This document shows positions 3,001 through 41,122 of a DNA stretch of 64,000 nucleotides, piece after piece. The stretch is taken from positions 19,348,857 through 19,412,856 of the forward strand of contig OZ316893.1 of the NCBI GenBank assembly GCA_973895155.1, written 5' to 3'. The stretch's first letter is position 1. Every line of letters begins with the position of its first letter. Source of the stretch: Marsupella aquatica. Lineage: Eukaryota; Plantae; Marchantiophyta. A program made the translations under genes and the position numbers. The notes below the pieces were generated by a model that was not told where the DNA came from, made no database searches, and saw only the letters and a list, made by a program, of their open reading frames with translations.

Positions 3001-4327
3001 TGGCACCATCAACAAATACGTCGTGGCCGCGACGGTTGGCAGTGGAGTGGATTCAGCGTTCTGCTCGTGGGATTTTTATGACAGAAAAATTACAGCATTT
3101 CGCTCCGAGTCATCTCTCGTGGCATCCCCAAGCCCCATCAGCTTCAAAAGTGCAGGTTCCAGTAGTCCAGAGCGTCGCCATTTCGCATCTAGGGACGGAA
3201 CGAAATCAAACTGCTTCTCCTGGTATAGTGGTTCAGACAACGCTCAGCTCCTGAAGGGTAGAACTCCTAATAGACCTCTGTCTCTAGACTTGGCATCAGG
3301 GGGCTCTTGCCCATCAGACGCCGAGAACCTGGACATTCCCAGGTGGTGGTACAGACCCTGTAGTCCTCTGCTCGCATCTGCTGCTAGTGGATTGAAGACC
3401 GTCACCCTCTATGACGTGCGGGATGGCGACGTGGTAATGACTTGGGACTTGTTTAAGTGCGTAGCATCTATGGAGTTCAGTTGCCCCATTCAATGGCGAA
3501 ACAGGGGTAAGATAGTGGTGGCCGAAGACGAGGCCATTAGCCTTTGGGATGTCAACAGCATGACACCGCAACGGTTGCACAATGTCGATCTCAGTGGAAA
3601 GGAGCTTCGAGCATTATATGTGGGCAACTCTGATGCTGACTTCAGTTTAGGCATTCGGCAAAGGTGACTATACATTCTCTCTCTTTATGACCAAGATTGC
3701 ATCCAATAATATACTTGTACTTCTATTTTTGTTTAGCTCTCACCGACCACATGACTGTTCTGACTGGCACATGACTCCGTCTCACTCGGATTTGAACTGT
3801 GTAATTTTTCCAGAGCCAGCTCGCGTGACAGTGTGAGCGGAGACGGGATTCTATGTACCCAAGACGCAGTAAATGTGCTGGATTTCAGGGTTCCTTCCGG
3901 CATTGTCCTTAAAATTCCAACTTTTGGTGAAACTGCAAACTCGTTGTACGCTAATGGTGACTCCGTCTTTGCTGGAGTTACCGACTTCAATCGAGTAGCC
4001 GGGAGTATCCAATCCAAAGTGAATGAATGGTCCATCAAGCAGGGTCGGCCAATGAGCATGTACAAGCTCCCAGAATCTACTGCCCATCGCACGCTACAGT
4101 CAGTGTGTCAAGTTTGGGGGAATTCAGACACAGTGGCTGCGGTAAATGGCAATGGTTTATTTATGTTTGACTCGTTAAACGGAGCTCCTCCCAGACGGGA
4201 TGGAGCTCAATCTGCAAAGGAAGTGTTAGGGACCGATGACCTGGTCCGACCATCGTTTGACTGTTCAGAAAACAGAGTATTGCTTATCTCCCAAGACAGA
4301 CCAGCTTCCTGGTGTAACTGGCCTTGA
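1..4327 (+). CDS. KIN14B-interacting protein At4g14310-like (coiled-coil plus C-terminal WD40-like region); 5'-partial; exons 1-2517, 2918-3663, 3814-4327
   Basis: Frame 1 is open from base 1. GT-AG introns 2518-2917 (phase 0) and 3664-3813 (phase 2) join the three ORFs in frame. Motifs GWFISEGEGILLAHDDGYCSFYD, WWYRPCSPLLAS, DGILCTQDAVNVLDFRVPSGI and PSFDCSENRVLLISQDRPASW match this plant family as I recall it. Confidence 0.85.
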
Positions 4328-6986: not shown

Positions 6987-8447
6987 CTAAACTTCCGCGA
7001 AAGGATTCAGACCAGGCTGAAGAGCGGAAAGTGTCCAGTAGTACTGCTCAGGCTCTCGAATATAAAAGAATCCATTCCACAAAGGCAACCGGGACTTGGG
7101 CATCTCCCAAGCCGAGGTATGGTAAGTCCACTCTTGTTCGCGGACGTCGTACATCATCATGGGAGTTTTGCGGACGTACTTCCCTCCAAAATAGATGGTA
7201 TCTCCGTAAGCAAGGACTTGATCAATGGTCACACCAACTAGTTTCTCTCGAGGACATTTGGACACCTCCTTGATCTGTCCAGTGGATAAATCCAGCTTGA
7301 ATATAAGGAAACTGTGGGCTCGGACGAACACATCCCTGTAAATCACGGGTTCTGACGGAACCTGACCCGATCCACTCTGGTCCAGGACCCTCGCCACCAG
7401 TATCAACTCCGAGCCACAAAGGAGGACATGATACTTGACAAGCTGCCGTGGCTGGACGGGTATGGGAGGCCTCTCGGTGTTCCAGGTGCCCTTCTCCACA
7501 TTGTGAGTTACAAGCAATGGGGGCCCAACCGGGGACGTGCTTCCAGTGGCTATGTAGAAAACACCATCGAGATAAACGAAGTTATAGAGGCTCGTTCTCA
7601 GCTTTGGCAGGAGTGTCTTCGAGGTCATCTCGGTCCAAGAATTGGTGGAAGAGTAGTAAATTTGTGTGACTACGGTGCTGGTCACGCAGGAGCCTTCGGT
7701 GTTTTCCAGCTGTGTGAGTAAGATGAGTTTGTAGCCAGTGGATCCCACAGCAATAAGGTGCATAATGTTCGGTCGTTGCATGGTGGGACGAGGAGGCAGT
7801 CTCTTCCAGTTTCTGGTGACCACATTCGCAACATAAATCTCGTTGTCTAAGGGCTTGTAGCTCCAGGGTTCCTCGCCAAAATTTGTGTCGACAGTGCTAA
7901 GAAAATTCACACTCGCAAAACAGACTAGAGCTCCCGCACAGCTGGTGATGGTGGTGGTGTCGATGCCTTCAGGAAGGAAGCAATCAACCATATTCAGATC
8001 GAAGATCTTCTCCCAAGCCTTGCTCTCGCTGCTGTAACCCACCAGCCCATCCTGGAACAAATAAACTGGGCAGTAGGTTGGCCACTTTGATGAGACTGAA
8101 GCGATAGCCTTCTCGAAGAAATGCGAGGTATGCTGCTGCTGCTGCGTCTTCGGAGTCGGTCCTCCCCGACCATTCCACCTCCAAGCGCGGGACAAAATCC
8201 GGCTCTGAAAGAGCGATTTGATGGGCAGCCTTGCAAGCGCTTCCTCCACTAACGCTTGTGGCAAAGAACCCCACAACTTCCCATCCATGTCACACTTGCA
8301 ATCATCCTCTTGCAGCCTCCACACCTTCTTCAAGATAGAGTCAGCATACACATTTGGTGGGTAAAATGTTTCCAGTGCCAGTGCTCGATTCTGCCTCAGG
8401 AATCCATCCATTGCTGTAGACGATTCGGATGATAGTAACAGCCTCAT
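6987..8447 (-). CDS. F-box protein with C-terminal kelch-like/beta-propeller region, single coding exon
   Basis: Long uninterrupted ORF with first ATG at 8447. F-box motif LWGSLPQALVEEALARLPIKSLFQSRILSRAWR is followed by typical segments (YVANVVTRNWKRLPP, QIYYSSTNSW, MYDVREQEW). Confidence 0.85.
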   Translation of the reverse strand: MRLLLSSESSTAMDGFLRQNRALALETFYPPNVYADSILKKVWRLQEDDCKCDMDGKLWGSLPQALVEEALARLPIKSLFQSRILSRAWRWNGRGGPTPKTQQQQHTSHFFEKAIASVSSKWPTYCPVYLFQDGLVGYSSESKAWEKIFDLNMVDCFLPEGIDTTTITSCAGALVCFASVNFLSTVDTNFGEEPWSYKPLDNEIYVANVVTRNWKRLPPRPTMQRPNIMHLIAVGSTGYKLILLTQLENTEGSCVTSTVVTQIYYSSTNSWTEMTSKTLLPKLRTSLYNFVYLDGVFYIATGSTSPVGPPLLVTHNVEKGTWNTERPPIPVQPRQLVKYHVLLCGSELILVARVLDQSGSGQVPSEPVIYRDVFVRAHSFLIFKLDLSTGQIKEVSKCPREKLVGVTIDQVLAYGDTIYFGGKYVRKTPMMMYDVREQEWTYHTSAWEMPKSRLPLWNGFFYIREPEQYYWTLSALQPGLNPFAEV

Positions 8448-10985
8448 GATCCAGTCCAGTTCAGGAATTGAGCTTCTATGATTGATTGCTCCTCCCAAGG
8501 TGGTTCAGCCAAATGGAATTCTCAGAGCTGAAGTCGTTGTGCACAACCACCACCTGCCTGGGAGAAGAAATTAGTTAATACGGGGCAGACTTCCAGCTTC
8601 AACGAAGTCTCCATCCAAGCGAATGCAAGTTCCATGCGGCCATCCTCCTCGCAGATACTTCGGGACAGAGAACTCTATCTGACGGTAAAAACGAACAATC
8701 TACAATGAAGTATTAATATTTAGCAGAGAACCTGCAGACGCCAATCTACCATGCTTGTCTCTCATGTATCCCCCTCGATCTGTCCTGTAAAACGACTCTT
8801 GTGATCCTCTTAACTTACGAACTGTAACGGCAGGTTAACAGCAACTATGATCGGGGCATTCCTAAATTGTGGGATGCCCCGAGCCGACTCTGAAAATGAC
8901 CCATCAAACACACTCGAAAGGTGGCACAGAAGCCATGTGAACGCAGAAGACAAGTTTCTAAACTCGTCCATTCTAAAGACTCTAATCACATCATTTATCC
9001 CTTGACCCCACAACAAGGTGAAGGGCAGTGGAGACCAAATGGGCCATGAGGTAAATGGCAGAGAATGCAGCATAAGAGCCAATGAATTAGTTACGCACCG
9101 GTGAGCAATCACAAGCTAGCAGATTGTAGCTGTGGGATCGAGGAGAGGGCGTGCTCTCGTCGTCTGGTCTGGCAGGAGTGAAAGTAAGAAGCAGAAGCAG
9201 TAGGATGAAGGAAGATTTTCGCTTTGCTATTGGTCTTCCCCATCAAGAAGCGTCTGTATCAGGACAACTTCCTATGACGCCCACCCCCCACCGGCAACGA
9301 TTGTCAGTCTCTGGCGTTGCGCTCATTGGCAGAATCGAGTACACCACCACCACCATCTCCGGATGAGGAAGCGAGCGCGGCATATCTCCTCCTCTTCTTG
9401 ATCTCACGCGTGGAAGGATGTACTCACGTTGATGATGAGCACTGGGTCTCCTTTCCGGATGACAATCCTGATCGGGCTCGATTAATCCCCGAATGTTCAT
9501 TCACGTCCCCTTCCTTGAATATGATCGGTTTACCTCTTGTCTATCTATCTACCGGTCTGTCTATCTGACGGAGTGTCAGTTTCAGAATCCTTCAAGTCCA
9601 CCTCTGAGGTGCACCTTCTCACAAAACAGCTCATAAGCGCAGGCTTGCGAGTCACGCCGCTGGTCTCATTCGGACCGACCTACCGACAACTCTACCACTC
9701 TGTTCTCCTCTTCGCCAGCTCCACCCAACATGCAAGAAAGGACGTATGCGCTTGCAGACTTGGAGATTGAATCTATCACATGGTAGTAGCCTTCTTTACG
9801 AGTACATGACTCAGCTTGATTCGCGGCTCCCTCCTTCCATGTCTATTCCGCTTCATGTCTTTCAGACAAAGCAATCTACACCAATTCCTTGGGAGTTGGG
9901 AGTTGGGAGTTGGGAATGCTATGCTTCGAGGAATGGATAGTTTCTTTCTTTCTCTCTCCCTTTCTTTCAGGAATGGGCAGGTTGGCTGGCCGGCCGGCCG
10001 GCTGCTATTGCATGGGATGGATAAGAAGAAGGAAGTGCCAACGATACTAAGTTTCAAACCAAACCAAAACAGGAAGAGCTGGTTGTTGTTGTTGATCAGG
10101 CTTTCTTCCTCAAGCACGCAGGCACATACGTACGCCAGCAGAAACGAAGACACCACTCGTAAAAGTCGACAGACAATGATGAATGAAACTATGAACGAGA
10201 GTAGGGACTACGTGACGTAGCCAAGGGCGTTCATCAGCGACATAAACAAGTACAGGAGACGAAGAGCACACTCCAACAACGCGCTCGTTCATGGACAGAG
10301 CAAGAAGGAGTCCAACCTAGAGGTGGGTCATTGCAGCATTTGAGGGTGAGGGGATGGTGCTGACCAGGAAACCGTGATAGCCGTGATGAGCTCATTCCCA
10401 CTGGTACAGTGATGTTATGAGCGAGTGAGCACGGACATTGAAGGTGAGCAAGGGCTGGGTAAAAATTATAAACCAATCCACTCCGCAGCACCGGCTTCAG
10501 CGAAGAAAGCGGGAATTCGGGGACCCACCAAACATCTGAAACCCGATTTCGCGTAGGCTCGAAGGTATGGGAGCAACGACACAACAATCATCCTCGGCCC
10601 TTTCGTAGTGAGACAAACTCGCTCGCCCTTCCCTAGTTCCCTCCCTCGCACTGAGGACTCGACGTGCTTCCTTTCCTTCGTTCCTTTCACATTGCTTTCG
10701 CTTGGGGATTGGCATCGCGGACTTTATTGACATTAACTTGCTCGGAGAGGAAACTGCGCCTGCCCTTGCGCTGGCTCGCTGGAACTGTGAGCCATGGCAA
10801 AAACAATAAAATAATGTCGAGAACCCAATCTCCGCAGAACCATGCAGTGAGATACAGAACTCAGTCTTCGAGATTATCGTGTTTGTAGCTCGAATCTTTA
10901 CACCAGTCCTGGCGCAGCACCTGACTATACCGGACCTCGCAGACCTACCGGGTAATTATAACAATAGGGGTCTCAAATAAATAGA

Positions 10986-11652
10986 ACCCCGAGTTAAATC
11001 TACATCACATTAATGTTCCCCCCACTTCCCAGGGGCGCCGTACACCCCGTCCCAGTCCCCGATGTTGCTGCCTGCTCCGGCCCAAGTTTGGCAGAACATA
11101 AACCAATACTCTACAATTTAAATCATGTGCTCCGGCCCGATTAACTTTGCGCCATCGACTTCAGGTTTATGTTTTGGCACCCAAAATGTTTTGTCGGCCG
11201 CTCCGGCCCGATTGACTTTGTGCCATCAACTTTTTGGAAGAAGTGTTGCCAAAACATAAACCACCACTCCATAGAGAATAAATATTTGGCACAACATAAA
11301 CCAAGACTTTATAAATCATGACTCTTAACCAAAGTACTAGGTTTGCCCTGAACACTTAGACTCTGTTGGAAAGAAGTGTTGCCAGAACATAAACCAAGAC
11401 TCCACAAGGAATAAATCGATGACACAATCTTAAGTCGTCAGGCCGGAGCAAGTGAAGGTGCCAAAACATAAACCCAAAGTCAATGACCCAAAGTTTATCG
11501 GGTCGGAGGGCTTGACAAAATGGTAGAGTATTGGTTTATGTTCTGCCAAACTTGGGCCGGAGCGGGCAGCAACATCGGGGACTGGGATGGGCAGTGTACG
11601 GCGCCCCGGGGAAGTGGGGGAGCATTAACGTGATGTAGATTTAACTCGGGGT
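10986..11652. mobile_element. Non-autonomous Mutator-like element (MULE-MITE), 667 bp
   Basis: About 130-bp terminal inverted repeats (ACCCCGAGTTAAATCTACATCAC... / ...GTGATGTAGATTTAACTCGGGGT). Perfect 9-bp direct repeat ATAAATAGA at 10977-10985 and 11653-11661. Internal repeats of CCAGAACATAAACC; no ORF. Confidence 0.85.
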
Positions 11653-12265
11653 ATAAATAGAGCATCTCAAACTTTAGAAGACGAACTTTTAGGTGACGTT
11701 GAGCCGAGAGTACACGTTGCTGGATGCGGACCCAAAATGTGCAGTACACCACGTCGGCAAACCGCACTTTTTGGCCCGGGCTTGTTTGCTAACATTACTT
11801 CTCCAGTTGTTACGACACCTCTCAAAGTTATCCCCCCAACCCCGTGCTTACTCATGCCCAAAAAGTAGGACCTGGCCCTAGTTTCGGCCTTGTTTCTGGA
11901 GGTCAAGAGCCCGGATGGCTCTCGAGAGAAGTAAACTTTGAGACACCCTCATGGACCACTCGGGCAGTCTCATGGCAGTTTCGAGGGATGTCTTGCAAAA
12001 ACATGCTCCACTCCCTGAGCCTATGTCTCACAGCAGTTTTGGACAGCTGCCATGAAAAAATGTCATGGGATTCCAATGTTTCCTGATGGCCGGTTGCCCC
12101 ATCACGGGCTACAGTAGCTGTTCTGGGACTGATAAAACTTAACCTCCAAAAGTTTGCATCAGTTGAATAACCCGTAGGCCACTTAGGGGCACTGGCGGTG
12201 TCCAGCGAAAGAGCACAAAGGGTATAGGATAAAGGGTTTAGGGTGTCTCAAATCTCTTATTTTGT

Positions 12266-12480
12266 CATTGGTCACGGTCAAGGTATGTTTCCCAAAACTA
12301 TAGTGATTTTTCCATCTCTAAATTTAGTCATTGGTCACCAAGATCAAGGTATGTCTCCCAAAACTATAGTGGTGTACATTTTTCCCTCTCAAATCTATAA
12401 ACTTAGTCATTGGTCACCACGGTCAAGGTATGTTTCCCAAAACTATAGTGGTGTACATTTTGCCCAAAACTATAGTAGGG
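12266..12480. repeat. Imperfect tandem repeat (CATTGGTCAC...CAAGGTATGTTTCCCAAAACTATAGTG), about 3-4 units
   Basis: CCCAAAACTATAGT recurs four times between about 12290 and 12476. Confidence 0.75.
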
Positions 12481-12762
12481 TGTCTCAATCTTTGGAGTTG
12501 CGGGAAAAAAATGAGGTCTGGGATTAGCAGTTTAGGTCACGGTTCATCAGTGTGTGGATATGTATTTTTGTGTCCGCCACCTTTTTCCCCGGATTCCATC
12601 TCTGACCGCAACCGAAGCAACAACACGAAATTTGAGACGCCCTAGTGGCGGACACGAGAAAACTTGTCCGCTAGAGCCCAACACAAAAAGGAAACTGGTA
12701 CTTTTGGGCCAGTATTTTCTTTGCGGCCCTACAAGGTTGAGAGCCCTATTTGAGATCGTTAA

Positions 12763-12998
12763 GGATCGTGGGGTGATTCTTACAGTAGCTGGCCTACCAG
12801 ATCTTGCCACATAAGCAGATTTATATTTGGTAATTTTGCACCGTATTTTTGGGTGTATTTGTACACAGGTATAAGATGACAAGGCAGCAGGTGCATGTAC
12901 CCTAACTAATCTCAGCCATTGAAATTGACGGTCAGATATTAGGCACGGGGAGCTTTCGATCTGGTCCATTCGATTGAGTCAATCAATGGCCACAATCC
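12763..12998. mobile_element. Putative 236-bp TTAA-flanked MITE
   Basis: TTAA|GGATCGTGG ... CCACAATCC|TTAA: 9-bp inverted ends with one mismatch, TTAA on both sides. Confidence 0.45.
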
Positions 12999-13105
12999 TT
13001 AACGTATGTTTATGGCTGCCCCCTGCTCCTTAATGGGGTATTTGAGCTTCAGTATGCCTCCCCGCATACGCGGGTCGACATACGGTCACTCTAATATCCC
13101 ATTAA

Positions 13106-13119
13106 ACCGCCACTGTCCA
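13106..13119 (+). repeat. Left TIR of the Kolobok-like element
   Basis: ACCGCCACTGTCCA, preceded by TTAA. Confidence 0.9.
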
Positions 13120-13999
13120 TATAAATAGCACTAGAGCCAAGCGCCGGTCAGCTCATTGTTCCGGACTCTGCCCAAAGGCTCTGCGACCCTGCCAGAGCCC
13201 GTAGCCCTAGCCAGGCTCCGCAATACGTGGTGGGTCGTCAGTGGTCCAAAAAGTGAGGTGGGGCATCCCGTGAGTTCGTTTGTTCGCGGAATGCCGTGGT
13301 TCGTGAGTGAGATGGGCTAGAAAACATGCTGCCATAGCCATGAAACTATCCGAGTGTGCTGGGGTTGGTGCATGTGCTGGGTTGAATGAATGGTGGAATT
13401 GACATGTTCTATGAACTCAAAAACTAATCGCGCCCAAAGTCGCGACCAAAGGAGCACACAAAAATTCCAACCGCTCTTGCACATGGAACATTGTCCATTC
13501 AGTTGAATGTAAATAGAGACCCAATCGAGTTTGCAATTTGGTCAAGAATTTATACTGCACATAGGCATGCACAAAGGCACTGGCAAGAGCCGTTCTCTAC
13601 ATTTTGATCGTATCAACTGCTCGCCAGTCAGAAATGGTCGTGCATACTATCGGACCTTGAGTTTTGGCTACAACTATTGTCATTCTGTTTTGGAAGACGT
13701 GGAACAGTAAGTAGCCCAAGAATAGCAATTGACAATGGAGGCCGAATTCAGTCGTCACACACAAGGACTTCGCCGCTGGTGTTCAACATTGCTCGTGAGC
13801 ATATCCCGGGGCATATCCAGAACCTGAACGAACAAAAAATAGAGAGTTTGTTGACCTGTTGAGTGATCGATCCAAGCAATTACATCGTCTGACTAGCAGC
13901 CTTCTAAAGCCGACTATACAAAAGACGAAGCTATCCCAATCTCCATAAATTCTTGAGTGCACGTCATATCTAGTGAGTCCCTAATGTATATGACAAGAA

Positions 14000-14900
14000 A
14001 CCAACCTCTCGCATAGCGGTCGCGCATTGGGATCTGCTTGGGTACACCGAGCGGCCACTTTCATCATCCATAGCACGCAGCATTTGTTTAACTTAGTGCA
14101 TTCCAATCGCCAATCCAACATTCTCCTTTGGATGTTGCACTCATCCGATGACTGGATCGCTTCAACTGTCTCTCGGCCCTGTATTACTCAACCCAAATTG
14201 TCTCTTGGCCCTGTATTACTTGTATGTGCGTACTCGCAGCAATCGGGTGCCCACCACTCCTGAGTGCAGACTACTCTATTACTGTCGTGCTTGCACCCTC
14301 TCCGTGGTGCCGTGGTGGCTCTGAAGCCCGTCCACTTGTGAAGCTCGTGGGGCAACATCGGATAGCTAGTTGACATAGTTCTCACCCATTCGCCAAGATG
14401 TGTCTCTGTTTTGTTGAGTTGGCAGAAAGCAGGGCGTCCAGTGATGAGCTCGAACACAAAACCCCAAAGGCGTAGACATCCTGTGGCATGGAAAGCTTCC
14501 CTCCTGGTTCATACTTTGGACCCAAGTATTGGCTAAGCTCATAATGGACTACCCATCAAAGTAGTGCCTAGAGGACAATGGCCGCAAGAGCTTTGTCTCA
14601 TGAATAGACATAGCTTTCTTCTTAGAGTTCAGGGTTTGATCTGCTTCCTTATCGTTTCCAAGAATTGAAGGACTCATCGACATTTCTTCGTTCCAGTTTT
14701 TGACATCAGTGACCAGGGAATCCCTTCTTCTGTAGATGAAAGTCTGTGGTGCAAAGTTCAGCAAAGTATTGTCAGACCCAAGCCACCATGCCAGATCCGG
14801 AAGAGCTTCACACAATTTCAAAAATGGCACTAGCAATTCCGAAACTAAGCCACCATGTCCAATCCCCAGTAATTCACGGAAAAATGCGGATCCGGACTCC
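14000..14900 (-). pseudogene. Degenerate receptor-like (RLK/Pelle) protein kinase fragment inside the transposon
   Basis: Minus strand gives YLGPKYEPGGKLSMPQDVYAFGVFVFELITGRPAF (subdomains VIII-IX) and KVAARCTQADPNARP then AMREV after a frameshift (subdomain XI). TTDFHLQKKGFP upstream is a weaker subdomain V-like match. Stops and frameshifts are present; boundaries are approximate. Confidence 0.7.
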
Positions 14901-15416
14901 GCTGAATCCTGCTTTTCTCCAGTGTTACACACGTCTCAACACCCGTATTACAGTATCACGGTTCTGTCGGTGTAATCAATCTTCATCAAATTGGAAGGCT
15001 GTTGGAAAGTTGCCATGCGATTATGTATCTTTCTAAGACACATAAGGCAAAAGGCGACAAGCAAAGCGCAACTGCTACTGGGATGAGCCACCAACTATAT
15101 CGATTGCTCTATTATAAGCTACGATTGCACACAAGCTGTCACTCTCTCGAGTCATTACTGGCAACATCATGTTTGATTTACATCTTTGCTCATTACATTC
15201 CCCAATGATGTGCGCACATTGCAACGCAAAAGATATGTCAGCTTTGGCAGGGCCGCAACATTGTCCCATGAATCTTTCATTATCCTACCTCTGCGATAGG
15301 GGAAAGCAATCGGCTGAGTAGAGTAGCCGAACTGTTCAAACCTTCTCTGTGCATCCTGCCTAAGAAGCACAATGCTTGTGAGAATCACGATTCGTGTACG
15401 CTCTTCCTTTCTTTTG

Positions 15417-15715
15417 CCATGCACTTCAACACTGACACGAGCCGGGTAGTTCTTTCGTGCAATTATTGGTTTACACAAAATGACACAGCAGGGGAAAGAT
15501 CGTTTACATTGAACGGGATCGTTTACATATTGAACGGGAGCCGGCTTGTTGTATGGTGTGCCATGCACTTCAACACTTACATGAGCCGGGCAGTTCTTTT
15601 GTGCAATTATTGGTTTACCACACGGTAGCGGCTTGACGGCACAACTGAGAACAGGGTCAGGGCAGGATGGCATGGTTTACCACACGGTAGCAGCTTGACG
15701 GCACAACTAAGAACG
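15417..15715. repeat. Nested direct repeats upstream of the transposase gene
   Basis: CCATGCACTTCAACAC...GTGCAATTATTGGTTTAC twice, GATCGTTTACAT twice, and GGTTTACCACACGGTAGC.GCTTGACGGCACAACT twice. Confidence 0.75.
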
Positions 15716-16058
15716 ATAATGCGCATGGAAAGGGAAGTAGCCTTCGCTCATTGTAGAGGATGACAGTGAGTGTAAAATGAGTGCACTCATGAGTGTAAAA
15801 TGCAGAATTGATGCCGGTGAGACCACCCACTTTTGTTTTCCGATTCGCCGAGTAGCAAGGCACTGACTTGGTCAAATACACGGCATTTGCATTTGTTGTG
15901 AAGGAAGGTATGAACTTACTAACTAAACTCTTGCATCTTCATCCACAAGTGCATTGTAGACTTGAAGCATGAATATGGTAACCATACAAATATATGAGGA
16001 CGTCTAATTTGCAAAAATTGTTGTTGTCACTATTGTTTTGGTTGCCAGAGTAGGACAA

Positions 16059-19000
16059 ATGGTCCGTCAACCGCACAGGAGGGATTATCACCAAGTTGGG
16101 GGCAATCTTCGATGTAGGCTTCCAGGAAGTCATATACGTACATACCATGCCTTACAGGGTGCCCTCAAATGGTCCCATGGGAAGTTGATGGCTTGGCTCA
16201 TGGATGGTATGTCCATGCAAATCTCTACTGTTATTAGCGGACATCATCGACGGTATCAAGAGGAAGTAATAGCATTTGAGGGCCCAAATGACTTTGGATG
16301 GATAAATAGTGAACACCTTGCTAATGAAGAGGACTTGGGAACATTTGGGATCATTTCAGAGGTAATTTTAATATCAATTTTCATTATAGTTCCAAGATTA
16401 CTTTCTTTCACTAATCTTTGTTTTCTAGGTTTTCATTTGAGTAAACCTCTTCCAACATCTCTCCTTTTTGATGTATTTAAAAAATTAGGGTTATCCAAAA
16501 TTTAGTGGTTTTATCTTTGGTACATCATGATTTAGTATTGTTGACCCATGTTTGTCTTTTTTTCTTGCAGCCATCTTGTGGTGCACTATCATCCGGTCCA
16601 AATAATGAGGAATCCATTCCTGACGAGGCATCACCTTCAGACGGAGAGCAAGATGATTCAGACTTGAACACTAGTGTATCTGACCACATTGAGTCTGGTG
16701 AGGAGGATGCAGAGCACATTCCGGATTCCAACATACACGTGGAAGATGGCCCTATGATGTCCGATTCCCAGGTAACTTTTTAAAGGATTTTTAATCCTTT
16801 TGTTTAGTGTTACATGTTTTGTTCCATAAAATAGGAACACATGCACAAAATAATGCACACTGTAATTTTTATGTTTTGCACACATTGAATTAATGACAAA
16901 ATATGATGATAACAAAAAGTTTATGTTTTAACCTCACATCTGTACATGATAATATGCTAAAGAGGATAATCTTCAATTATAATGATAGGACTAACTTTTG
17001 AGTCCTCACCCTGCCCAACCTACATACAATACAAATCAATGAGGGGTCACTACTAAAAAGAGGTTTAAGGAGGTCGTTCCCTAATATCATTTTTTTTGTT
17101 TTTTTGCTTTTTCACCCTAAACCCTCAACCCTAATATCATGCTTAACTTACTCCTTTGACTTATTTGGCCCTGGCCATGGCATATAGTAATCAGGTTCCA
17201 CACTATCTTTTCTATCAATTGCCATACTTTGTTTAATGGGTGTCAAAAAGATTTGAGCATTGAAGATGGTATCTGTAGAGGTTGGTTAGGGGTCCGGGGA
17301 AGGGAATATTTTTTCTTTGTTTAGGGAACAGCTGTAAAATGATAAGTCATGCAAACTAATCAGGAACTTTACTTTACATAGGTAATGCATTCATTTTATG
17401 GAAACCGTACCTTCAACTAAAAATCAAAAATTGCACCCTAAACCCCTGGCTAACAGATTTCAAATGAGGATGGAGCCATTGGTTTGCTGGAAGGCAGTGA
17501 TCCAACAACATTTGGTTTCGACAGTATGGTTTTCATGGATTCCGGGTTTCAAGAGAATGACACTCAGGTATTCTATATTTTCACATTGTTGTCCTTGTCA
17601 TTTGCATCAATTCATAGTTATAATTATTTATTTTAAATAAATTGCATCTTTACATAGCTTACTAATTATCGTGTGTTTTTCAAGGCATCTACTTCTTCTG
17701 AGCAAGTACATGTTGACTCTCGTTTGGATTTTGAGTATGAGCCATCCTCTCAAGAAAATACAACCCAGGCCGACCCTAAGAGCCTGGTGGAGTATGCTTT
17801 TTGGCAAAAAAGCAAGGTCCACGAATTTTTTCGGGAATTTTGTGTGAATTGTCGTGTTGAAGGTTGTGTTGGTAAGTATTTGGTTGAGGACATAGTGACA
17901 CACCATCAGTTGTGGATATTGAAATTGAAGTGCCCACAAGGGCATACACAATCTTTCATGACTGGGGAGAATGAACTTCATAGAGGTACGTCATCTGCTC
18001 AAATTAATACTATTTGTTTATACTATTGTACTTATTTGATTTAATATTGTCCATTTTAAAACAAAAAGTTTATAAGTCAAGTCTTGTTTTCTTGATGAAT
18101 ACAGGTGTTCCTGCAATCACTGGACTGATTTACCACTCTGCTCTCTCTGCTGGTTTAACACACAACATCATATGTGAACTCTTTTCTCACATTGAGATCC
18201 ATGTTCCAAGAAACACCCATTGGTTTCGATTTCAAAATGGAGCCCGAAGAGACATTGGATGGATTGGAGCAGTGCTGCAAGTCTGGAATGATAAGAAACA
18301 AAGGTTGCAACAAAGCTTAGCAGAAAGAGATGGTATGTCAATCTTCTTGTAGTGAAACACTTGTTTTGCTAGCTAGTTGATTGATGAGTCTATCAATTTA
18401 TTACTATTAGGTTGTTAGTGCATGCATGTAAATGTTGGTTTCTAAATATTTGGTGAATTTATGATAATTGTAGGTTCCACTCCAATGATTTTATATGTGG
18501 ATTGTCGTTGGGACTCATCACGTTCTGGATACCATGGCACTGTTCCTGTCATAGACGTGGCTACTAGTAAGGTAGTAGAGCTTGTAACAATCAACCGCGT
18601 TGAGGCTGGGAATTCAGGCGCTATTGAGGCAATTGGTGTTCGTCGTGCCCTCCAACATCTTCAAGATGTTGGAGTTAGAATCAATGAGGTTGTTCATGAT
18701 GATAACAACACAGTTGATGCTATTCTTCGTGAGCTCAATGTTGATAACCAGAAGGATTTATGGCACAAATGTAAGAATCTTTTGAAGCAATTTAACAAAG
18801 AGCTAGCAAATGTGAAAGAAACAGCACCTGTTGGTGGGATCGATGGTGCAGTATCCTTGCAAGAATTGGGCAGATTCACTGTGCGAGTGTTGTCAGATTG
18901 GTGCAAGAACCAGCTATTGAGGCACACAGGTAATAAGACAGAGTTGGTGCACCGCATTGGAAGACATAAAGGGCTTTTGGAGGAGGACATCACATTGCAC

Positions 19001-19875
19001 ACCAGGAGGCAATTGAAGTATCCAGAATTGACAGAAAAACAACTTGGTGATAAATTGAAGAGTTGGTTTTACTATTGTTGCTGCAATGCAAAAGAAAGGT
19101 ACGATGGTAACTATGGTATTCAATTCCATTCAAACTAACTTGAGCAATTATTGAATTCTTTCATTATTTTGAACTAAACTAACTCTTGAATTATATTGTA
19201 ATGACTACTGTCTTATAGAGGAAATGATGATGCTACCATGTTGGCTAAGGAGATCATCACAGCAGCTGATCATTGGGCTGGTAACCATGAACCCTGCAAA
19301 GATTTCCTTCCTTGCAAGTGTTGTGAGGAAGGTGTAACTTACATGCCATACTATGTTGAAGGTAAGTTAAACGCTACTATCCATTAAACTTGGTTGTAAA
19401 TTGTGTATGAGATAAATAATGAGTTTTATATTGTTATCTAATGTAATTGGATTGTTACCTAATGTTTTGCAATTTATAATATTTTCAAATATGGATTCTT
19501 GTGGGTTTTGCAGGGGGCGCTACACATAGAGCTCTAAAGCAATGGTTGCAGAAGAACATCACTGCAATCAATGTTCGCTTTTACACTAGAGCCCGAGCAA
19601 ATTTTTTTAGTGAAACATTTCATGGAAACATCAACAAGTATGCTATGAAGAGGATTCATTTTTCCATGACTCATGAAGCCCGAATGGCATGTGCTGCAAT
19701 GTGTTGGAATGAAAACATTGGTCGAGAGGTGGTACGAGTTCGAACACGACAGCCTAGTAATACATGTACACGTCAGCGTACATCAAAGGTTCGTGACCTA
19801 GTTCCTAGAAGCATCAGGTGGAAGAAAGACGTGGCCCATATCATATTTGGAAGAGGTGTAGACTATGATATGTGA
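16059..19875 (+). CDS. Kolobok-type DDE transposase, 8 exons, 757 aa (16059-16361, 16571-16771, 17457-17567, 17685-17985, 18105-18332, 18474-19098, 19219-19361, 19514-19875)
   Basis: All seven introns are GT-AG with matching phases (0,0,0,1,1,2,1), giving a stop-free 2274-nt CDS. Motifs: Cys/His zinc-binding region (CRVEGC...CPQGH), YVDCRWDSS (first D), VVHDDN (second D), DLWHKCKN, and SETFHGNINKYAMKRIHF...ARMACAAMCWNEN (E). The three acidic N-terminal exons are less certain than the catalytic ones. Confidence 0.8.
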
Positions 19876-20778
19876 TACTTGATACAGTTGTTATTTTGGC
19901 TATAAACTTCCACCCTTGTCATGCATTTGACATTTAGGAGATATATAAGTTGTGGGTTTTGCTATATTCATATGCCATTTTTTACTGTCCCATGTATCAC
20001 CTTGCCATCTAATTTTGTTTTGTAATAGAATGTATATTGTAGGATGTGAAGTTAGGGTTTAGCACCATCAAATAACAAAAAGTTGTGAGTTGTGTTGTTG
20101 TATTACAACTTTGGGAAATGGCCATGGACCAAGTGTCCATACTTGACCTGCCTATGATAGAAGAGTAACATGCATTCATGGCATTGCATTGCAAACTAAC
20201 TTGGTGGATACATTGCAAATATTTATCTGAATTTAACAATACTCCAAAAGGGAATTGAACCCTCATGCTGCCATCCAGTAGGAGTTCCAACCCAAAGGAG
20301 GGGGAAGGAGGCACAAGCCAAACAAACACAAAAATCAAGTAGCACAAAGAACCCACACAATGATAATACTAGGAATAAACAAATAAAGACAAATTTAAAA
20401 ACTAAAACTAAAAAACCAAAAGAGGAAACCAAGATGGTATTTGCCTCCCAATCTCCACGGTTTTGTAGTGCAATTGGGAGAAAGGAGGCACATGCCAAAC
20501 AAAGAAAATGAAATAGTATAGATAGTAGAACAAACTTAAGAAACCTTGGAGCAATAAGTAAACATGGATGAAAACATAGTTACACAACCTTACCAAACTA
20601 AAGGATATACCGACATGGTTGCTTAGCAAGGCCCAAATTGTTTACACTTGCAGTTGGGAAAGGAAAGGAGGCACATGTGAAAAAAACATGAAAAAAATTG
20701 GTGAAACAAAGAACCCATGAAAGAATAACTCACGTGATGAAACAACAATGATGAAAAGAAAAATTACAAAATAAAAAC

Positions 20779-21682
20779 CTAAAATCGAAAACCCACATGT
20801 TGTTCGCCTGGTAGCTCCCAAGTGGACTGCACAGCAGCTGTGACTGCTGCTGGGAAGGGTGTTCTATCTGCAAAGGAAGCAACATATGCAAGTTTGCGAT
20901 ACACAACATATCGCTGTCGACGAGGAACTGTTTCAGTGTATGCCCATGCGGCACACATATGAAAAGCTTGAGCTGTTGCAGGGGAAAGAACCTGGGCAGA
21001 GTTTAGGTCCTCAAGGTTGTCGTCTATGGCTCTGCAAAAATCAGGGAACCTGGAAACTATGTCTCCGTGTCTCAATAGTCAAAATTTTCGACGCCCTGGT
21101 GGAGGAACTGGCCATGATAACCGATATATGTCGTTTCCATAGGAGATCAGTTCCGCCGGTCTGTTCTGATGCTCGGCAGTCCTTCAAAACATAGGAAATT
21201 CAAGATCGATGTGCAATTAGTATCCCTATAAAACTAAGCCATGTAATAATTGTTGTTTGATGGAGGTTATATTTTACACAAAATTGAGCAAGAACAAGCA
21301 AGTATTATGCATGTGTGCATGAAGGAAAGTCAATTAGAAACCAAATCACATATTTGCAAAGGTAGGCCAAGTATATGCATGCAAAGTGGCCACATGGCAA
21401 TGTACACATGACCAAAAAGAAAATGAAGAGTAACTACCAAGTTTTATGCATGCATAATTCAAGGTCTTCAATCAATGGGTACAGAATTTTAAGATGCTAG
21501 GCATGCAAGAGTGAACAAACCTGGAATTATTCATGTTGATTGCAAGGTGATGAAATAACCCTGTCAATAACTCAGGTAAGTCTATTCCAAAGGAATGACA
21601 GCAACTGAACTCCAGAACGACCTTCCGAACCAAAAAATGAACCACAACACTGGTTGAAGCACACCCTTCTTCCTGGAGCGTC
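20779..21682 (-). pseudogene. KolX / P2X7 cytoplasmic-ballast-like accessory gene, convergent with the transposase; inferred exons 21682-21521 and 21181-20779; in-frame TGA at 21081-21079
   Basis: C-terminus RRQRYVVYRKLAYVASFADRTPFPAAVTAAVQSTWELPGEQHVGF resembles the RY.AYR...R..P.C.V..IR..FP....Y.GF ballast motif. The phase-2 splice join is consistent. The 5' exons are not resolved. Confidence 0.65.
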
Positions 21683-22100
21683 CTAAACACAATGAGTTGG
21701 TTAGCGAACTACGAAGGGAACAAGAAAATAAGTTGTAAGTGTACTAGTTGAACCATGCCCTTCTTCTTGAGTCGTAAAGTAACCAAAAAAGTGAGAAGCA
21801 ATACTAGTAAACCCAAAAAGTGAGGAGCACAACGAGTGGGCTGCCGAAAGATGAAGGGACTGCAAGAAAACGAGCTGCAAGTGTACCAGTTGCACGATGC
21901 CCTTCTTCCGGAGTCTGCAACAAAAAAGTGAGAAGCAGTACTCGTAAACCCAAAAAGTGAGGAGCACAACGAGTGGGCTGCCGAAAGACAAAGGGAACAA
22001 GAAAACGAGCTGCAAGTGTACCAGTTGCACGATGCCCTTCTTCCTGAGTCTGCAACAAAAAAGTGAGAAGCAGTACCCGTAATCCGAAAAAGTGAGGAGC
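21650..22100. repeat. Three to four tandem ~139-bp units, each with a micro-exon-like core
   Basis: Minus-strand TTGTTGCAG-ACTC(A/C)GGAAGAAGGGCATCGTGCAACTG-GTACAC repeats near 22020-22055 and 21880-21920, with diverged copies near 21740-21775 and 21650-21682. Confidence 0.8.
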
Positions 22101-23768
22101 AATAGAAGCAGAGAATTTTTATATACACAATCTATGTGAGCTGTGAATGGGCCGTTCACAGTAGGCATGGGCAACGCATTCTATATTGAGCACCAGTAAG
22201 TGTGCGTCACTGCCATAGTAGCGCAACTGTCCAAAGTGAGCTTCATTGGATGGGCGCCCGTATGGGAGGCCAAGTAATTGAGAGTGATTGGCCATGGATT
22301 GAGAGTGGCAGTGAGTATACATGATGCCAAATAAGTTTTTCACAGAATGCGAAACATGCTGCTCCTGTTATAACGAGGATCGAGTCACGGGGGCTGAAGC
22401 TCGGGGGGACGATTGAGTGACAGATCTTAATTTACATGAGCCAAACGAGTTGTCCAATTGCGTTGTTCAAGTGAGAATTTTGTTTTCACTGAGAAGTTGG
22501 TGCACTGTTCACCCAGGAGTTGAATCCCGTTTGGCTGGAGTGCGATCCATCACTACTGCACCTTTTTTAGAAATCTGCACCTTGTTACGTACACTTCAAT
22601 TGGTAAGATAGTAACAGAGGAGCCCATTTTTTGAGGCTTTTCTACAATTATTTGGAGGCGTTCATGAAGGCGCTCCACAGAAGGTTGCATCGGGACTCAT
22701 GGTGCTTGATCGGGCGGCTGATTTGCAAAGTGTTGGTTAGAGTCAAGTTCCGGTACATTGACAACGAGTTGTTATGCTCGATCTTTGAGCAGGTCTAAAC
22801 CTTTTCAAGACAGATTTGCTTCACCGGCACAATTAAAACCTTTACTGATTGTGTCCTGGATGAAAGTCTCTATAGCAGATGCTCAACCTGTACACTTTGA
22901 GGTAACCAAGTAATCAATCCAAATGACGGCTACGAGACAGCTAGAGGGTAGCAGGATTACACACGAAGTCGCTTGTTCTGGTGACTCTCATCATCGAAGG
23001 TTACTCTATCGTCTTCATAACCTCCTCCCCCACCAGACTTATCCTTCTTCTTATTATTATCTAGTATCTGATTGATTTTATGAAGCTCGTAATTGAGCTT
23101 CTGCTCCATTTTCTGTTTCCGAATTTGCCAAGTTGAGATCCACATGTGACATCGCTCAACTTGCCTTGTGAACATTCTCTTAGCATCGGGGGAGTAAACG
23201 GATCGATCGATTCTGCTTTCATCGCTCTGAAATCAAGTCCAATCAACTGCCGAACAACCCCTTCGAAAAAGAAAGAGAAAGATAAAAAGCTTCAAAACGC
23301 CCTCCACACACCACTGCTGCAATCACCGTAACTCACCACAGTCCCCTCCACACACACGGACACTTGGCTGCGCTTGTTTGATAACTTTCTCTCACGGCTT
23401 TACAACGAGACCTTGTTTGATCACTTTCTCAAACAACTTTACAACGAGACGACCGCTGCATCGGCTGCTTCAACTCCGACTGTTACTAACTTGAGACTCA
23501 ATTGAACAATTCTGCGTTCCGTTTTTGTTTCCTCTCTCGCGCAGCATGTGACGATGACTCTACTGACTACTCTGGATAGCGCAGCATGGGCTAGAGGACT
23601 TGCCCCACCTAGGGTTCATGAAATTGCGCCCTCCGTGAAATGAGGCTGGACACTGGTACACGTGTACAGCTGACCGGGGCAAAAAGTGACCTTCGAGAAA
23701 TAGTTGAGAATGCCCGGAGCTCAAGTGTCGGCTATATTAAGCAATGTGGTGGATCCACATTTTGGAAG

Positions 23769-23782
23769 TGGACAGTGGCGGT
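23769..23782 (-). repeat. Right TIR of the Kolobok-like element
   Basis: TGGACAGTGGCGGT, followed by TTAA. Confidence 0.9.
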
Positions 23783-26700
23783 TTAAGAAGCATGACGAGA
23801 CCGTAAACATATATATAACCCAGCACCCCCGTAATAGCGATCGGATAAACATATCCCGTCAATGTTATCCTTGCCCGATGATTGCGAGGCCTTGGATTGG
23901 CCGAGGCACGGGGGGCAAACTGCCAGTGAGGCGCGGCCCGGTACTCCGGTACTACTCCGGCCGGTACGCCCTCGTACCGGGCCGTGCGGGAGCCAAGGGC
24001 CGGTACAGTGTATTGAAATTGAGCTCATTACGGTGTCTTGATACGGTGTTCCAACGTTTTCTGTACGGTATGGAGTACGGGCAACGGCCAAGTCACAGTT
24101 CCGTCGTAAGTGGGACGGAAATACCGGCAATCATGAAGTACGGAACCGCACTACAGTTACTCCGCGTGTTAGAAAAAACGCCGGAAACTTATGATGATAA
24201 TTGTTTGGTTCGTAGAGGGGTAGAGTCAGAAACAAGTTGTGGAATGAATATTATTTCTCGTCGATCGCCTTTTCGCGCGCTAGAGTGACTCTGCCCCGCG
24301 CATGATTTGCTGTCATCGATCAGTCTCGCACCTTTCTTTCCTGTGATTAAACAATTCATTCAAATGTGCCATCTATTTTGGTCTGGTGACAAAGGACTTG
24401 AGAAATTTATAAAAGTGCGTTTTTATTACCATATGTGTGAACGTCAATTACACACGTTGAGGACTGAGAGCCTTTGGCTTTTTATTCGCAAGTGACATGG
24501 GGTAATGGAGACCAAGCTTGTTCTGCCGACAACCCTGACTGTCAATTGGAAACAGGGAAATTGAATGTACGGTGCTATTCCTAATGACTTGTCTAGTTGA
24601 GTTGATGAACACTTTGCGGATTGAAAACTATTTGGCTCTCTACTATTGAGTTACAAGGGTAACCTGACTGCATGTTAAATTTATGTCAAGTTAAATGCAC
24701 TCCATATACCAAAACATAAATCAATGCACTATATTTATAATTTACAAACTAAATAATTTGAACGACATATGTCTTGGTTTATGTTCTCATCATACAGCTC
24801 ATGTAGATTTAACGGCCATGGTAACTTGCAACGAAAACAAAGGCTATGAAACCAAGAACCCTGAATGTCAATTTAAAGTTGGGAAAAGGAATTTAAGCTG
24901 GTATTCCTAGTAGCTTTGACACAAAACCGGTTGCAACATTAGAGTGTCTCAAATTTACTGTTCTACTGAGGTTTCCAGTGACTGGAATACTCCGGGCAGG
25001 GTCACAGGTTGAAATCTGCAGTTCCCAAAAATGTTACCGCCACTAGCTCCGGCGGTAAGTGCACCTGTTCCGCACCAAAAATTGATATGCACAAATGTAT
25101 CAGCACCCGTCAAAAATAGATGTGACATGGGCGGCTGTGATCCATCACAAACCCAAAAGCCCATGGATTAAATTAGCCATTGCTTGGTAATTCAGTCTGC
25201 TGACCATAAAAAAACTGGCAATAGCTGGTTTGAGACACCGCAATGGACTACAAGGGACATCCTGTTCTCTTACAGTTACTAGTAATCTTAGATGTAAAGT
25301 GTAATATTGGAGCATATTTCAATGTTTACACCAGGTCTATGGAGGCTGTGCTAGTCCATGTGTGCTTCTCCTTCCAAATGGGGCCAGAGAAGTAAAAATC
25401 CTTCACAGCGCACATCAAAAAGGAAACCTAGAACGAACAACATTCGCTGATATAAGAAAACAATCAAAGTTGTCGTGGAATTTGAAAACCCATTAACCTG
25501 TGAGCATAGGTCACGTAACACAGTAAGTCCTTTTTTTACGTGCATTTATCGCCAGTCAATCTCCTATACGCTTAGAAAGGTCATAACAAGGCATCTATTC
25601 TATCCACAACTATGTTACTGTTGTCCTCCTAACAATTATTCCACGTGGAAACCAGAGCGCATTCAGCGACTCTAGGCAAAGACGAACCCATGTCAACCCA
25701 CAAAACCCCAAAATCCCAGGCAGTGGAGCATTTTGGCCAAGGCAGAGTAATTAGCTGCCAAAATGATATATTTAGGTACACGAAAAGTAACATGAAATGC
25801 TGGGACGTCAAAGTAAACTGTTGCTGAGACTGCGAAATTTGTAGAATTCAACTCAACACATGAAAGAAAGGGCCGGGTGGGAGGAGGACGGATGAGGCAC
25901 TGAGCAGTCTAAGATGTCTCAATCTCTGTGTAAAGGGGCAATTTGGGATGGAAACTCTGTCTAGTAGACAACGCTAACGTCAAGTGTTCTTGGAGGGATG
26001 CGTCTTGTGGTGGTTTGTGTGGGGCCGATTTATACGGTTGTATGTTGCTTTTGGTTGTTTGGAGGGTTACTCCTCCTATGTGGGTACAGTACTACAGTCT
26101 TCCTTCCAAAACAAAACAGATAGTTCTTGGAGGAGGATTTCTGGTTCAGGAGTGCAGTTGAACAGAAAATGTCTAGGTGAGACATAAAAGTGCAAGTGAG
26201 ACAAAGAAGTACTGTGGAAGAACAAAATTGTTTAATCATTTCATGTGTCGCCAATGCAAGGGTGGGTCTTTGAGACAGGAAGGCATTGAGGCACAAAAGT
26301 GTTGTCAAGACAAGGAAGGCATTGAGGAAAAGGAAGTGTTGTTGAGGCAAACAAGAGTCACTGAAGGTGCTGCTGATGCCAGGGTGGATGCAATATTGCT
26401 ATCAAAGTCAGCTGCATCACAAATCAGGTCGCCATTTCACAGTGCAATGCTGTTGATCATTTGTCAGGAGGGCAAGTGAGGGAGGGATGCAAGGGCAGGG
26501 GTGGGGTGAGCCAAGAGATGCCTGGCCTGAGAGTCTTCAGGTCCAAGCATGGTGATTCATGCGAGGATCAATTTCATTTGTTTATCTTGTAATTCCTTAG
26601 CAAGATCCTTGAATAAACCACCAAAACTTGCATAGACCATTCTGAAATTAATTTAGATGATAACATATTTTGATTGTTGCATAAATGCTTACCTTTTGAG

Positions 26701-38844: not shown

Positions 38845-39525
38845 AAGTGCAAAACCTGTACAAGAAATCTAATTAATGAAACCTGATCACAAGCTAGTTC
38901 CTGAGCCTAGCATACATTGGAGGCTCTAGACACTAACTATGAGTGAGGGCATAACTAAAAATGAGGGGCTCTAGACACTAACTATAGGTGAGGGCATAAC
39001 TGAAAATGAGGGGCTGTAGACACTAACTTTAAATGAGGGCATAACTGAAAATGAGGGTGCACAAGGACATACCCCACCCAAAGTGCAAAACCCTGTACAA
39101 GAAATCTAATTAATGAAGCCTGATCAAAAGCTAGTTCCTGAGCCTAGCATACATTGGAGGCTCTAGACACTAAGTATAAGTGAGGGCATAACTAAAAATG
39201 AGGGGCTCTAGATACTAACTGTAGGTGAGGGCATAACTGATAATGAGGGGCTGTAGACACTAACTTTAAATGAGGGCATAACTGAAAATGAGGGTGCACA
39301 AGGACATACCCTACCCGAAGTGCAAAACCTTGTACAAGAAATCTAATTAATGAAGCCTGATCAAAAGCTAGTTCCTGAGCCTAGCATACATTGGAGGCTC
39401 TAGACACTAACTATCAGTGACATTGGAGGCTCTAGACACTAAGTATAAGTGAGGGCATAACTAAAAATAAGGGGCTGTAGACACTAACTTTAAATGAGGG
39501 TGCACAAGGACATACCCTACCCGAA
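38845..39525. repeat. Higher-order tandem repeat: about three ~237-bp units built from ~37-bp subunits
   Basis: AAGTGCAAAACC...TACAAGAAATCTAATTAATGAA starts at 38845, 39081 and 39318. Subunit is GAGGGCATAACT.AAAATGAGGGGCT.TAGACACTAACT. Confidence 0.9.
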
Positions 39526-40900: not shown

Positions 40901-41122
40901 GTAGTTGGTGTCCAGACTGATTCGCTCTAGGTATTTAATCACATACTAACGTGAGAAATACTGGGCAGCGGGCAGTCGATCACGTACGGGGCTAATCAAT
41001 GCTAATCACATTGATGAGCCTCGATCTTGCCTTTCGTTCTTAATCACGAGCCGTGGTCAAGCGAGTTAGGGGGGTGGGGCCATTAAAAGTCCCCCGATCC
41101 TGGGGGAAGGCAGGTACAAAGG

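Follow-up and report, generated by a model that had tools for sequence, protein, structure and literature searches.

Is a Kolobok-type transposon at home in a land plant, and where does the unusual domain at the start of its transposase come from? Both questions are raised by a stretch of 64,000 nucleotides from the liverwort Marsupella aquatica (assembly GCA_973895155.1, contig OZ316893.1, positions 19,348,857 to 19,412,856), here called the window and numbered from its first letter, in which positions 13102 to 23786 had been predicted from the letters alone to hold a Kolobok-like DNA transposon. We consider it very probable that this is a full-length, multi-copy transposon with terminal inverted repeats (TIRs) flanked by TTAA and a Kolobok-type DDE transposase of predicted cut-and-paste activity, that its lineage was likely inherited in streptophytes, and that the N-terminal domain of the transposase likely shares ancestry with the TCP domain of plant transcription factors. 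With it, Kolobok-type transposons extend into land plants, in a lineage of distinctive anatomy (AC ends, a SAP insert, a TCP-like N-terminus), and the TCP domain, whose family governs branching, leaf shape and flower symmetry, gains a concrete candidate for its origin.

A full-length, multi-copy element at TTAA

The original prediction described perfect 14-bp TIRs with TTAA at both sides, AC...GT termini that differ from the published RR...YY, and the lack of long terminal direct repeats (LTDRs); all three descriptions hold. The right TIR is the exact reverse complement of the left one (Table 1), and the TIR/TTAA ends are the sole perfect inverted pair of at least 18 bp in the window, besides one miniature inverted-repeat transposable element (MITE) and one AT-rich palindrome. 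The 20 largest repeat families, out of at least 60, include no LTDR. Other copies likewise show AC...GT with TTAA at their right end. When the register is moved by one base the ends become AA...TT and the duplication TA only, and the DNA alone fits either reading.

The copy family was assessed from contigs of public sequencing runs (X1-X4). Over positions 11500-25500 all four runs yielded contigs (291-1581 per run), 88-99% alike and mostly 90-99%, a contig depth that is not to be read as copy number; they pile up on the transposase gene and on 20373-21306. At the right end at least 14 contigs from the four runs track the window through the TTAA and then split off into unrelated flanks, eight of them diverging at 23786 and six at 23787, while none stops between 23766 and 23785 (both among the 26 of 42 loose-end rows listed). 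Six of the 14 come from run X1, and X1 and X3 possibly hold the same copies. The left junction is bridged by a contig of X1, which is possibly the window's own sample (13021-14397, no differences), and by one of X2 (13053-14263, two differences); the right junction is covered by a single 56-bp contig with 26 flank letters, under the threshold of 31. Differences between copies in the exons touch 26 codons, 13 of them synonymously, and create no new stop (among the 40 best-supported of 998 differences). One null result speaks against complete certainty here: no empty TTAA site was seen at the right end in five of six runs, nor in X2 or X4 overall, among the rows listed, and for this reason we infer the duplication of TTAA itself. 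Together these data confirm that the element is a real, full-length, multi-copy TIR transposon targeting TTAA. An assembly chimera or contamination is ruled out by the bridged left junction, the plant genes in the window and the plant-style introns.

The transposase gene

An eight-exon model recovers a spliced protein of the same length as originally predicted (757 aa). Its frame runs from the ATG at 16059 to the TGA at 19873-19875 with no internal stop and with introns of 117-685 nt; at the junction of exons 6 and 7 two alternatives are likewise open. The nearest transposase is P0026 from Calypogeia fissa (63%), and residues 143-749 align with P0001 from Riccia at 42%. Because residues 7-65 also match P0001 (E 6.5e-5), the start codon at 16059 is supported.

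The first two catalytic aspartates are 66 aa apart, and the CCHC finger that follows the first D in KolobokP, E and D is absent. A cluster of His and Cys residues (H613, C616, C622/C624) lies between the DxxH and the last E and aligns in the relatives, which by sequence suggests a zinc finger. An AlphaFold model of P0001 (pLDDT 85) matches IS256 with a Z-score of 12.8, Hermes with 11.9, P with 8.3 and piggyBac with 6.9; as modelled through this relative, the RNase H fold of the core is nearest to IS256, hAT and P transposases. No MULE (Mutator-like element) or piggyBac Pfam family matched the window exons or any of 11 close relatives, and where MULE Pfam matches do occur, on 8 of another 52 relatives, each is under the cut-off.

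Table 1. Features of the element in the window, in order of position
Feature	Position	Strand	Basis
Left TTAA target-site duplication	13102..13105	.	read in sequence
Left 14-bp TIR, 5'-AC start	13106..13119	+	sequence, inverted-pair scan
Frameshifted fragment like plant receptor-like kinases (subdomains VIII-IX), approximate bounds	14350..14543	-	PDB search
Transposase gene model, 757 aa	16059..19875	+	8 GT-AG-bounded exons, predicted splicing
Exons 16059-16361, 16571-16771, 17457-17567, 17685-17985, 18105-18332, 18474-19098, 19219-19361, 19514-19875		+	transposase model
N-terminal domain, aa 1-58, TCP-like / ribbon-helix-helix (RHH)-like, predicted end-binding	16059..16232	+	family profile vs TCP15, TCP10, PCF6
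Catalytic core: D391, D457, DLWH (H479), H613/C616/C622 zinc-finger region, E671	18494..19623	+	visual comparison of signatures with Data S5 (PMC9587614)
SAP-like insert between DxxH and zinc finger	18866..18958	+	Pfam SAP (E 0.0023 on the window exon), PDB SAP domains, insert length
Convergent accessory-gene exon with KolX/ballast-C-terminus-like motif (20788-20913)	20779..21181	-	ORF, motif, high contig cover
135-bp tandem repeat, 2.8 copies, units like pyrimidine tract + AG + short exon	21714..22101	-	sequence
Subterminal GTGG-n-CCAC inverted half-sites, TCP-site-like	23746..23758	.	post hoc motif search
Right 14-bp TIR, GT-3' end	23769..23782	-	sequence, contig ends
Right TTAA target-site duplication	23783..23786	.	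sequence, contig ends

Relatives of the transposase and the SAP-like insert

With the largest exon as query, phmmer returned 211 matches and a word-based search 11, nine of the latter from Riccia sorocarpa. Sources are known for 24 of the 150 phmmer matches listed (of 211). The 20 relatives that were looked up comprise Calypogeia (1), Riccia (3), Chara braunii (3), Closterium (3), one cluster that bears both a Pyramimonas and a Prorocentrum label, and nine without a name; no moss, hornwort or vascular plant is among them, 126 of the 150 listed matches having had no look-up. Two scans of metagenomes turned up no relative. The more distant matches carry the signatures DGRxDSPGHSAKY and TDARH, as do Kolobok_1_XT/BF/DR and Kolobok_1_OwFu in Data S5 of PMC9587614 when compared by eye; kinship with named Kolobok transposases is suggested by these signatures, with no named Repbase sequence in the tree. 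In the Atlas, P0001 has as its structural neighbours a Parabasalia cluster and clusters of PF20700 paired with THAP, YqaJ or RNase_T, which match the published Kol0, KolobokE, KolobokD and trichomonad designs.

The tree was calculated from 42 rows (59 core-covering matches, from which 12 near-identical rows and 11 that were gappy or duplicates were dropped and to which five partial ones and the window were added), with the insert columns removed. The window and Calypogeia pair (98) within a clade of 27 rows that also holds Riccia, Chara, Closterium, a Pyramimonas-labelled protein and metagenome rows (SH-aLRT 94); a tree of 53 rows with the insert retained gave the same clade. The insert itself sets the clade apart: the distance from the H of DxxH to the next conserved W is 76-313 aa in 26 of the 27 clade rows versus 29-38 aa in 14 of the 15 outside, and the Pfam SAP match rises over the cut-off in relatives. 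Three properties of the tree weaken the case for a lineage inherited in streptophytes. The clade support of 94 is unstarred and comes from a quick tree, the clade is not purely streptophyte since it includes metagenome proteins and the Pyramimonas/Prorocentrum cluster, and the tree has no exclusive liverwort group uniting Riccia with the window. The lineage pattern nevertheless fits an old residence in streptophytes better than a recent transfer from animals, with the reservation that the deep branches are poorly supported.

Several of the relatives are worth recording in their own right. Pyramimonas sp. and Prorocentrum cordatum are both given as the source of a near-identical 891-aa transposase (P0060, P0172-P0175), probably through cross-contamination, and few N-termini are more TCP-like than the one it carries. 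P0006 and P0012-P0025 (JGI) belong to a cluster of 18 members with an uninterrupted, apparently intronless reading frame of 527 aa that shares about 39% identity with the transposase of the window. P0123 and P0148 (Logan contigs) are outgroup Kolobok-type transposases with N-termini that look ribbon-helix-helix (RHH)-like by eye, and P0104 bears a homeodomain.

Placement among transposon superfamilies

The Kolobok superfamily (Kapitonov and Jurka; Kojima and Bao 2022, PMC9587614) is defined by a TTAA target and termini of the form RR...YY, together with C/DxxH and, ahead of the E, a zinc finger; its transposases usually begin with a THAP domain (PMC6004289). The element has TTAA at both ends, the D391-D457-DLWH-E671 series and a putative zinc finger between DxxH and E. 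Its ends, on the other hand, are AC...GT (RY), which counts against a plain Kolobok assignment; the THAP Pfam family was found neither on the window exons nor on the relatives scanned; and the transposase falls in a clade separate from the rows with Kol0 signatures. Because of its ends, the lack of a THAP match and its grouping apart from Kol0, we file the element as a Kolobok-related lineage and not as canonical Kolobok or Kol0. The prediction of a Kolobok-like transposon in a land plant is partly supported: TTAA and the Kolobok-type DDE transposase hold, and the element is multi-copy. Absent from that prediction were the SAP insert, the relatives among streptophyte algae, the TCP-like N-terminus where a THAP would be expected, the TGA of the second gene and the kinase-like fragment of the left arm. 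The marks of KolobokP, E, D and H (LTDRs; His-Me, lambda-exonuclease, DEDDh and RecQ partners) were not found in the repeats shown or the open reading frames (ORFs) scanned.

MULEs make target-site duplications of 8-11 bp and have long TIRs, and piggyBac encodes a DDD transposase without DxxH. That the element belongs to either family and merely has unusual ends is highly improbable, even with IS256 as the top structural match and with PF20700 termed 'Mutator-like' by Pfam. A MULE or Mutator assignment was rejected on the 4-bp TTAA, the 14-bp TIR and the absence of PF10551 from the window and the 11 close relatives; piggyBac was rejected on a DDE transposase with DxxH and on the structural scores, and a DDE triad combined with DxxH and, ahead of the E, a zinc finger fits Kolobok. 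Some piggyBac elements do bear KolX-like proteins (Data S6, PMC9587614) and share with the element the TTAA target, a cysteine-poor protein and the spacing R-x3-Y ... P-x10-W-x8-GF; they differ in that its transposase is of the DDE type with DxxH and, as modelled, structurally distant. An ordinary Kolobok of the Kol0 group, consisting of transposase and KolX and possibly acquired horizontally from animals or fungi, is improbable. With Kol0 (Kolobok-1_XT; PMC9587614) the element shares TTAA, short TIRs, a DDE core with C/DxxH whose last E is preceded by a zinc finger, the absence of a CCHC finger behind the first D, a second, convergent gene with a motif like the ballast C-terminus, and a length of about 10 kb, within the range given for Xenopus elements (6.8-13.9 kb; PMC6004289). 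Unlike Kol0, it has AC...GT ends, a TCP-like N-terminus in place of THAP, a SAP insert of about 70 aa, and an accessory ORF that is poor in cysteine and found no match in any search. Its seven introns are of plant style, its nearest relatives are from liverworts and streptophyte algae, and joining the window and Calypogeia with seven Kol0-signature rows is disfavoured at p=0.045 in the AU (approximately unbiased) test, a borderline value for rows chosen by motif after the tree.

The Kolobok-related lineage that we prefer also has hosts of its own: those given among plants in PMC9587614 are Micromonas and rhodophytes only, as against a land plant and streptophytes here. The row Kolobok_1_KlNi of Data S5, a name that we read as Klebsormidium nitens, has a CCHC finger and looks like another branch. 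In keeping with the suggestion that the plant lineage may be undescribed, no description of a land-plant Kolobok was found in the open literature, with Repbase, Dfam, subscription journals and most supplements outside the search. Mentions of Kolobok in spinach, Brassica and Metrosideros are repeat-annotation labels only (PMC6337768, PMC6482515, PMC13084152), the main text of the Riccia genome paper, as accessible, does not contain the word (PMC11735767), and in a survey covering 1007 plant genomes, with Kolobok among the superfamilies screened, active clusters were reported for seven other superfamilies only (PMC12973397). A gene that, as here, is split by introns and has no Pfam hit would likely be missed by such a screen.

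A TCP-like domain at the transposase N-terminus

A domain of about 60 aa opens the transposase in 41 of the collected sequences, every one of them inside the clade, and is 10-41% identical to that of the window. A family profile built from ten pieces, with no TCP sequence in it, placed TCP15 first among 177,635 PDB sequences (E 3e-6 and 5.5e-6), followed by TCP10 (E 0.043) and rice PCF6 (E 0.099), and none of its 28 PDB matches was a bacterial RHH protein. The alignment covers about 52 columns, 20 of them identical to the consensus by eye, and takes in the DRH (D-x-H) loop, the RIR saddle (R-x-R; RCR in the window), GR..IR.P, a helix-LG-helix stretch and WLL..AEP, the likeness being to AtTCP15 (7VP6/7VP3), AtTCP10 and OsPCF6 (PMC9841405). 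A machine-made alignment of 17 full-length proteins found TCP again (E 0.018, 0.028), as did ten fresh members across the whole domain (E 0.043, 0.055). TCP was thus found by three of four family profiles, of which only one is strongly significant; two short N-terminal profiles describe the same domain. In the model of P0001 the N-terminus forms helices at 32-44 and 49-57. TCP chains are absent from the top 50 structural matches of this full-length model, a list that is filled by the catalytic domain.

On these comparisons the N-terminal domain is probably homologous to the TCP domain specifically, an assessment from which a number of results detract. The alignment behind the best TCP profile (E 3e-6) was trimmed by hand, and in the profile of ten fresh members partial ankyrin matches (0.02) rank over TCP15. 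A narrow full-length profile of 13 sequences found no TCP in the PDB, nor did either of two single queries, P0120 and the window's own N-terminus, the latter of which matches C1q. The Pfam TCP family PF03634 matched three members under its cut-off (E 0.012, 0.019 and 0.021), its best score being 16.6 bits against a gathering cut-off of 23, which is why we call the domain TCP-like and not TCP; these scores fall on trimming (none; 0.1). In all seven proteins of the Closterium clade the domain went undetected. Unlike TCP factors, moreover, it forms the N-terminus of a transposase, and its dimerisation and DNA binding are predictions only.

The TCP domain forms RHH-like dimers, and these bind GTGG-n3-CCAC (PMC9841405). 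The element has a single GTGG-n-CCAC site, beside the right TIR, a motif that occurs at three places in the 64 kb; its last 60 bp hold five GTGG/CCAC words, a number that 0.08% of windows reach, the motif having been chosen post hoc. Canonical TCP sites at the left end were considered and rejected, as the first 60 bp hold one GTGG and are unremarkable. Because the N-terminal domain resembles TCP, we suggest that the transposase would dimerise through it and that it would recognise the ends by binding GTGG/CCAC half-sites within and beside the TIRs, to which the SAP insert could add a further DNA contact. The RNase H core would then cut the element out and insert it at TTAA, a cut-and-paste reaction expected because the transposase belongs to the DDE/DxxH class. 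The likely product of the convergent gene is a KolX-like helper poor in cysteine, which is possibly broken in the present copy.

Two accounts compete with specific homology and descent from the transposon. The likeness to TCP might be generic, the result of separate RHH-like folds or of chance; we regard this as unlikely. For one group of members an antitoxin family, VAPB_antitox, does give the better scores (E 0.003-0.075), and the misses by single sequences and by the narrow profile point the same way. Against it stand the absence of any bacterial RHH chain at E<=10 from the three positive profile searches and the extent of the match, which includes the DRH loop described as TCP-specific (PMC9841405). 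It is also unlikely, in our estimate, that the domain is homologous to TCP and was captured by the transposon from a host gene. The named carriers, Chara and the liverworts, come from lineages reported to have TCP genes (PMC10049435, a report disputed for algae in PMC6679135; the two and PMC9682074 disagree on algal TCP genes), and the element appears to pick up host fragments, as with the kinase-like piece described below. Capture is at odds with the great diversity of the domain within the transposons, with its presence in the Pyramimonas-labelled cluster, whose label is doubtful, chlorophytes being reported without TCPs, and with a weak similar stretch at the start of P0123, a transposase from the outgroup (6.7 bits against the family profile).

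If the homology is specific, the direction from transposon to TCP is somewhat favoured. We therefore put forward, tentatively and with slightly more doubt than conviction, that the TCP family (TB1, CYCLOIDEA, PCF) was domesticated in streptophyte algae from the N-terminal domain of a SAP-bearing, TTAA-targeting, Kolobok-related transposase, that this lineage is alive as active elements in liverworts, and that the terminal GTGG/CCAC words represent the ancestral TCP motif. Two reviews state that the ancestor of TCP is unknown (PMC10049435, PMC9682074), and domestication from a transposon is therefore a testable proposal. Precedents for plant factors derived from mobile elements are ALOG, from a DIRS1-type element, and WRKY-GCM1 (cited in bioRxiv 10.1101/2022.11.22.517060), in which a transposon DNA-binding domain likewise gave rise to a family of plant transcription factors. 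In contrast to these, the accessible text of the two reviews proposes no transposon origin for TCP, and no literature linking the TCP domain to a transposase was found within the accessible text of the sources searched.

The accessory gene and captured cargo

Two convergent genes had been predicted inside the element, and a minus-strand ORF at 21078-20779 indeed faces the transposase gene. An in-frame TGA at 21081-21079 precedes it, which is either a nonsense change or part of a possible frame-keeping GT-AG intron of 90 nt (21121-21032). The proposed identity of this ORF as KolX (P2X7 ballast-like) was not borne out beyond one C-terminal motif. The C-terminus has the spacing R-x3-Y-[KR]-x3-Y ... 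R-x2-F-P-x10-W-x8-GF, as in a KolX-like protein of Data S6 (PMC9587614), and this motif, built post hoc, matches once in the window and not at all in 60 random sequences of 64 kb. The 133 aa read contain two cysteines versus the seven conserved ones of the KolX ballast fold. Searches of Pfam, the PDB, homologues and the Atlas (best 0.80) were all blank, which argues against the identification, and a single-sequence model (pLDDT 64) had no Foldseek match, with VIA matches generic helical and no P2X7 chain listed. In other copies one codon of the frame changes from TCC to AGC (Ser in both) and one from AAC to GAT, differences that suggest constraint on the accessory frame. The units of the 135-bp tandem repeat are possibly, to judge from their make-up, upstream exons of the same gene.

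The kinase-like fragment is likely captured cargo. All 14 of its PDB matches are kinases at the same position, each with just E 0.33-1.6; its second-frame piece alone had no PDB match, and contig depth over the fragment is near flank level in X1.

Surroundings of the element

Host genes in the window include an At4g14310-like beta-propeller gene (2891-4327, plus strand, E 6e-50) and an F-box/KIB1-4 propeller gene (6987-8504, minus strand). A frameshifted PIF/Harbinger-type transposase lies at 51942-53467 (minus strand, Plant_tran E 1.7e-76), with inverted repeats at 53823-53941 and 63937-64000 nearby. Because these two genes and a plant Harbinger transposase are present, the window is taken to be land-plant DNA, and the nearest transposase, that of Calypogeia fissa, suggests a liverwort.

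Both flanks of the element (12814-13087 and 23784-23812) are repeated in the genome and show short inverted motifs facing the insertion, so that the element may lie between or inside small repeats. Upstream, at 10986-11652, lies a MITE-like element whose inverted repeats are long and nested; contig depth there is very high, with many unrelated flanks joined at 11652. Further downstream, the region 41120-45856 contains an integrase ORF (42247-43011, minus strand) amid 298-bp direct repeats that are 4267 bp apart and 97% alike, and is likely a long terminal repeat (LTR) retrotransposon. An ORF at 49128-49718 (plus strand) resembles the C-terminus of a non-LTR retrotransposon and has a zf-RVT match, and another at 61736-63128 (plus strand) is presumably of the same kind, judged by its motifs only. 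Nested tandem repeats of 45 bp and 237 bp occupy 38851-39525.

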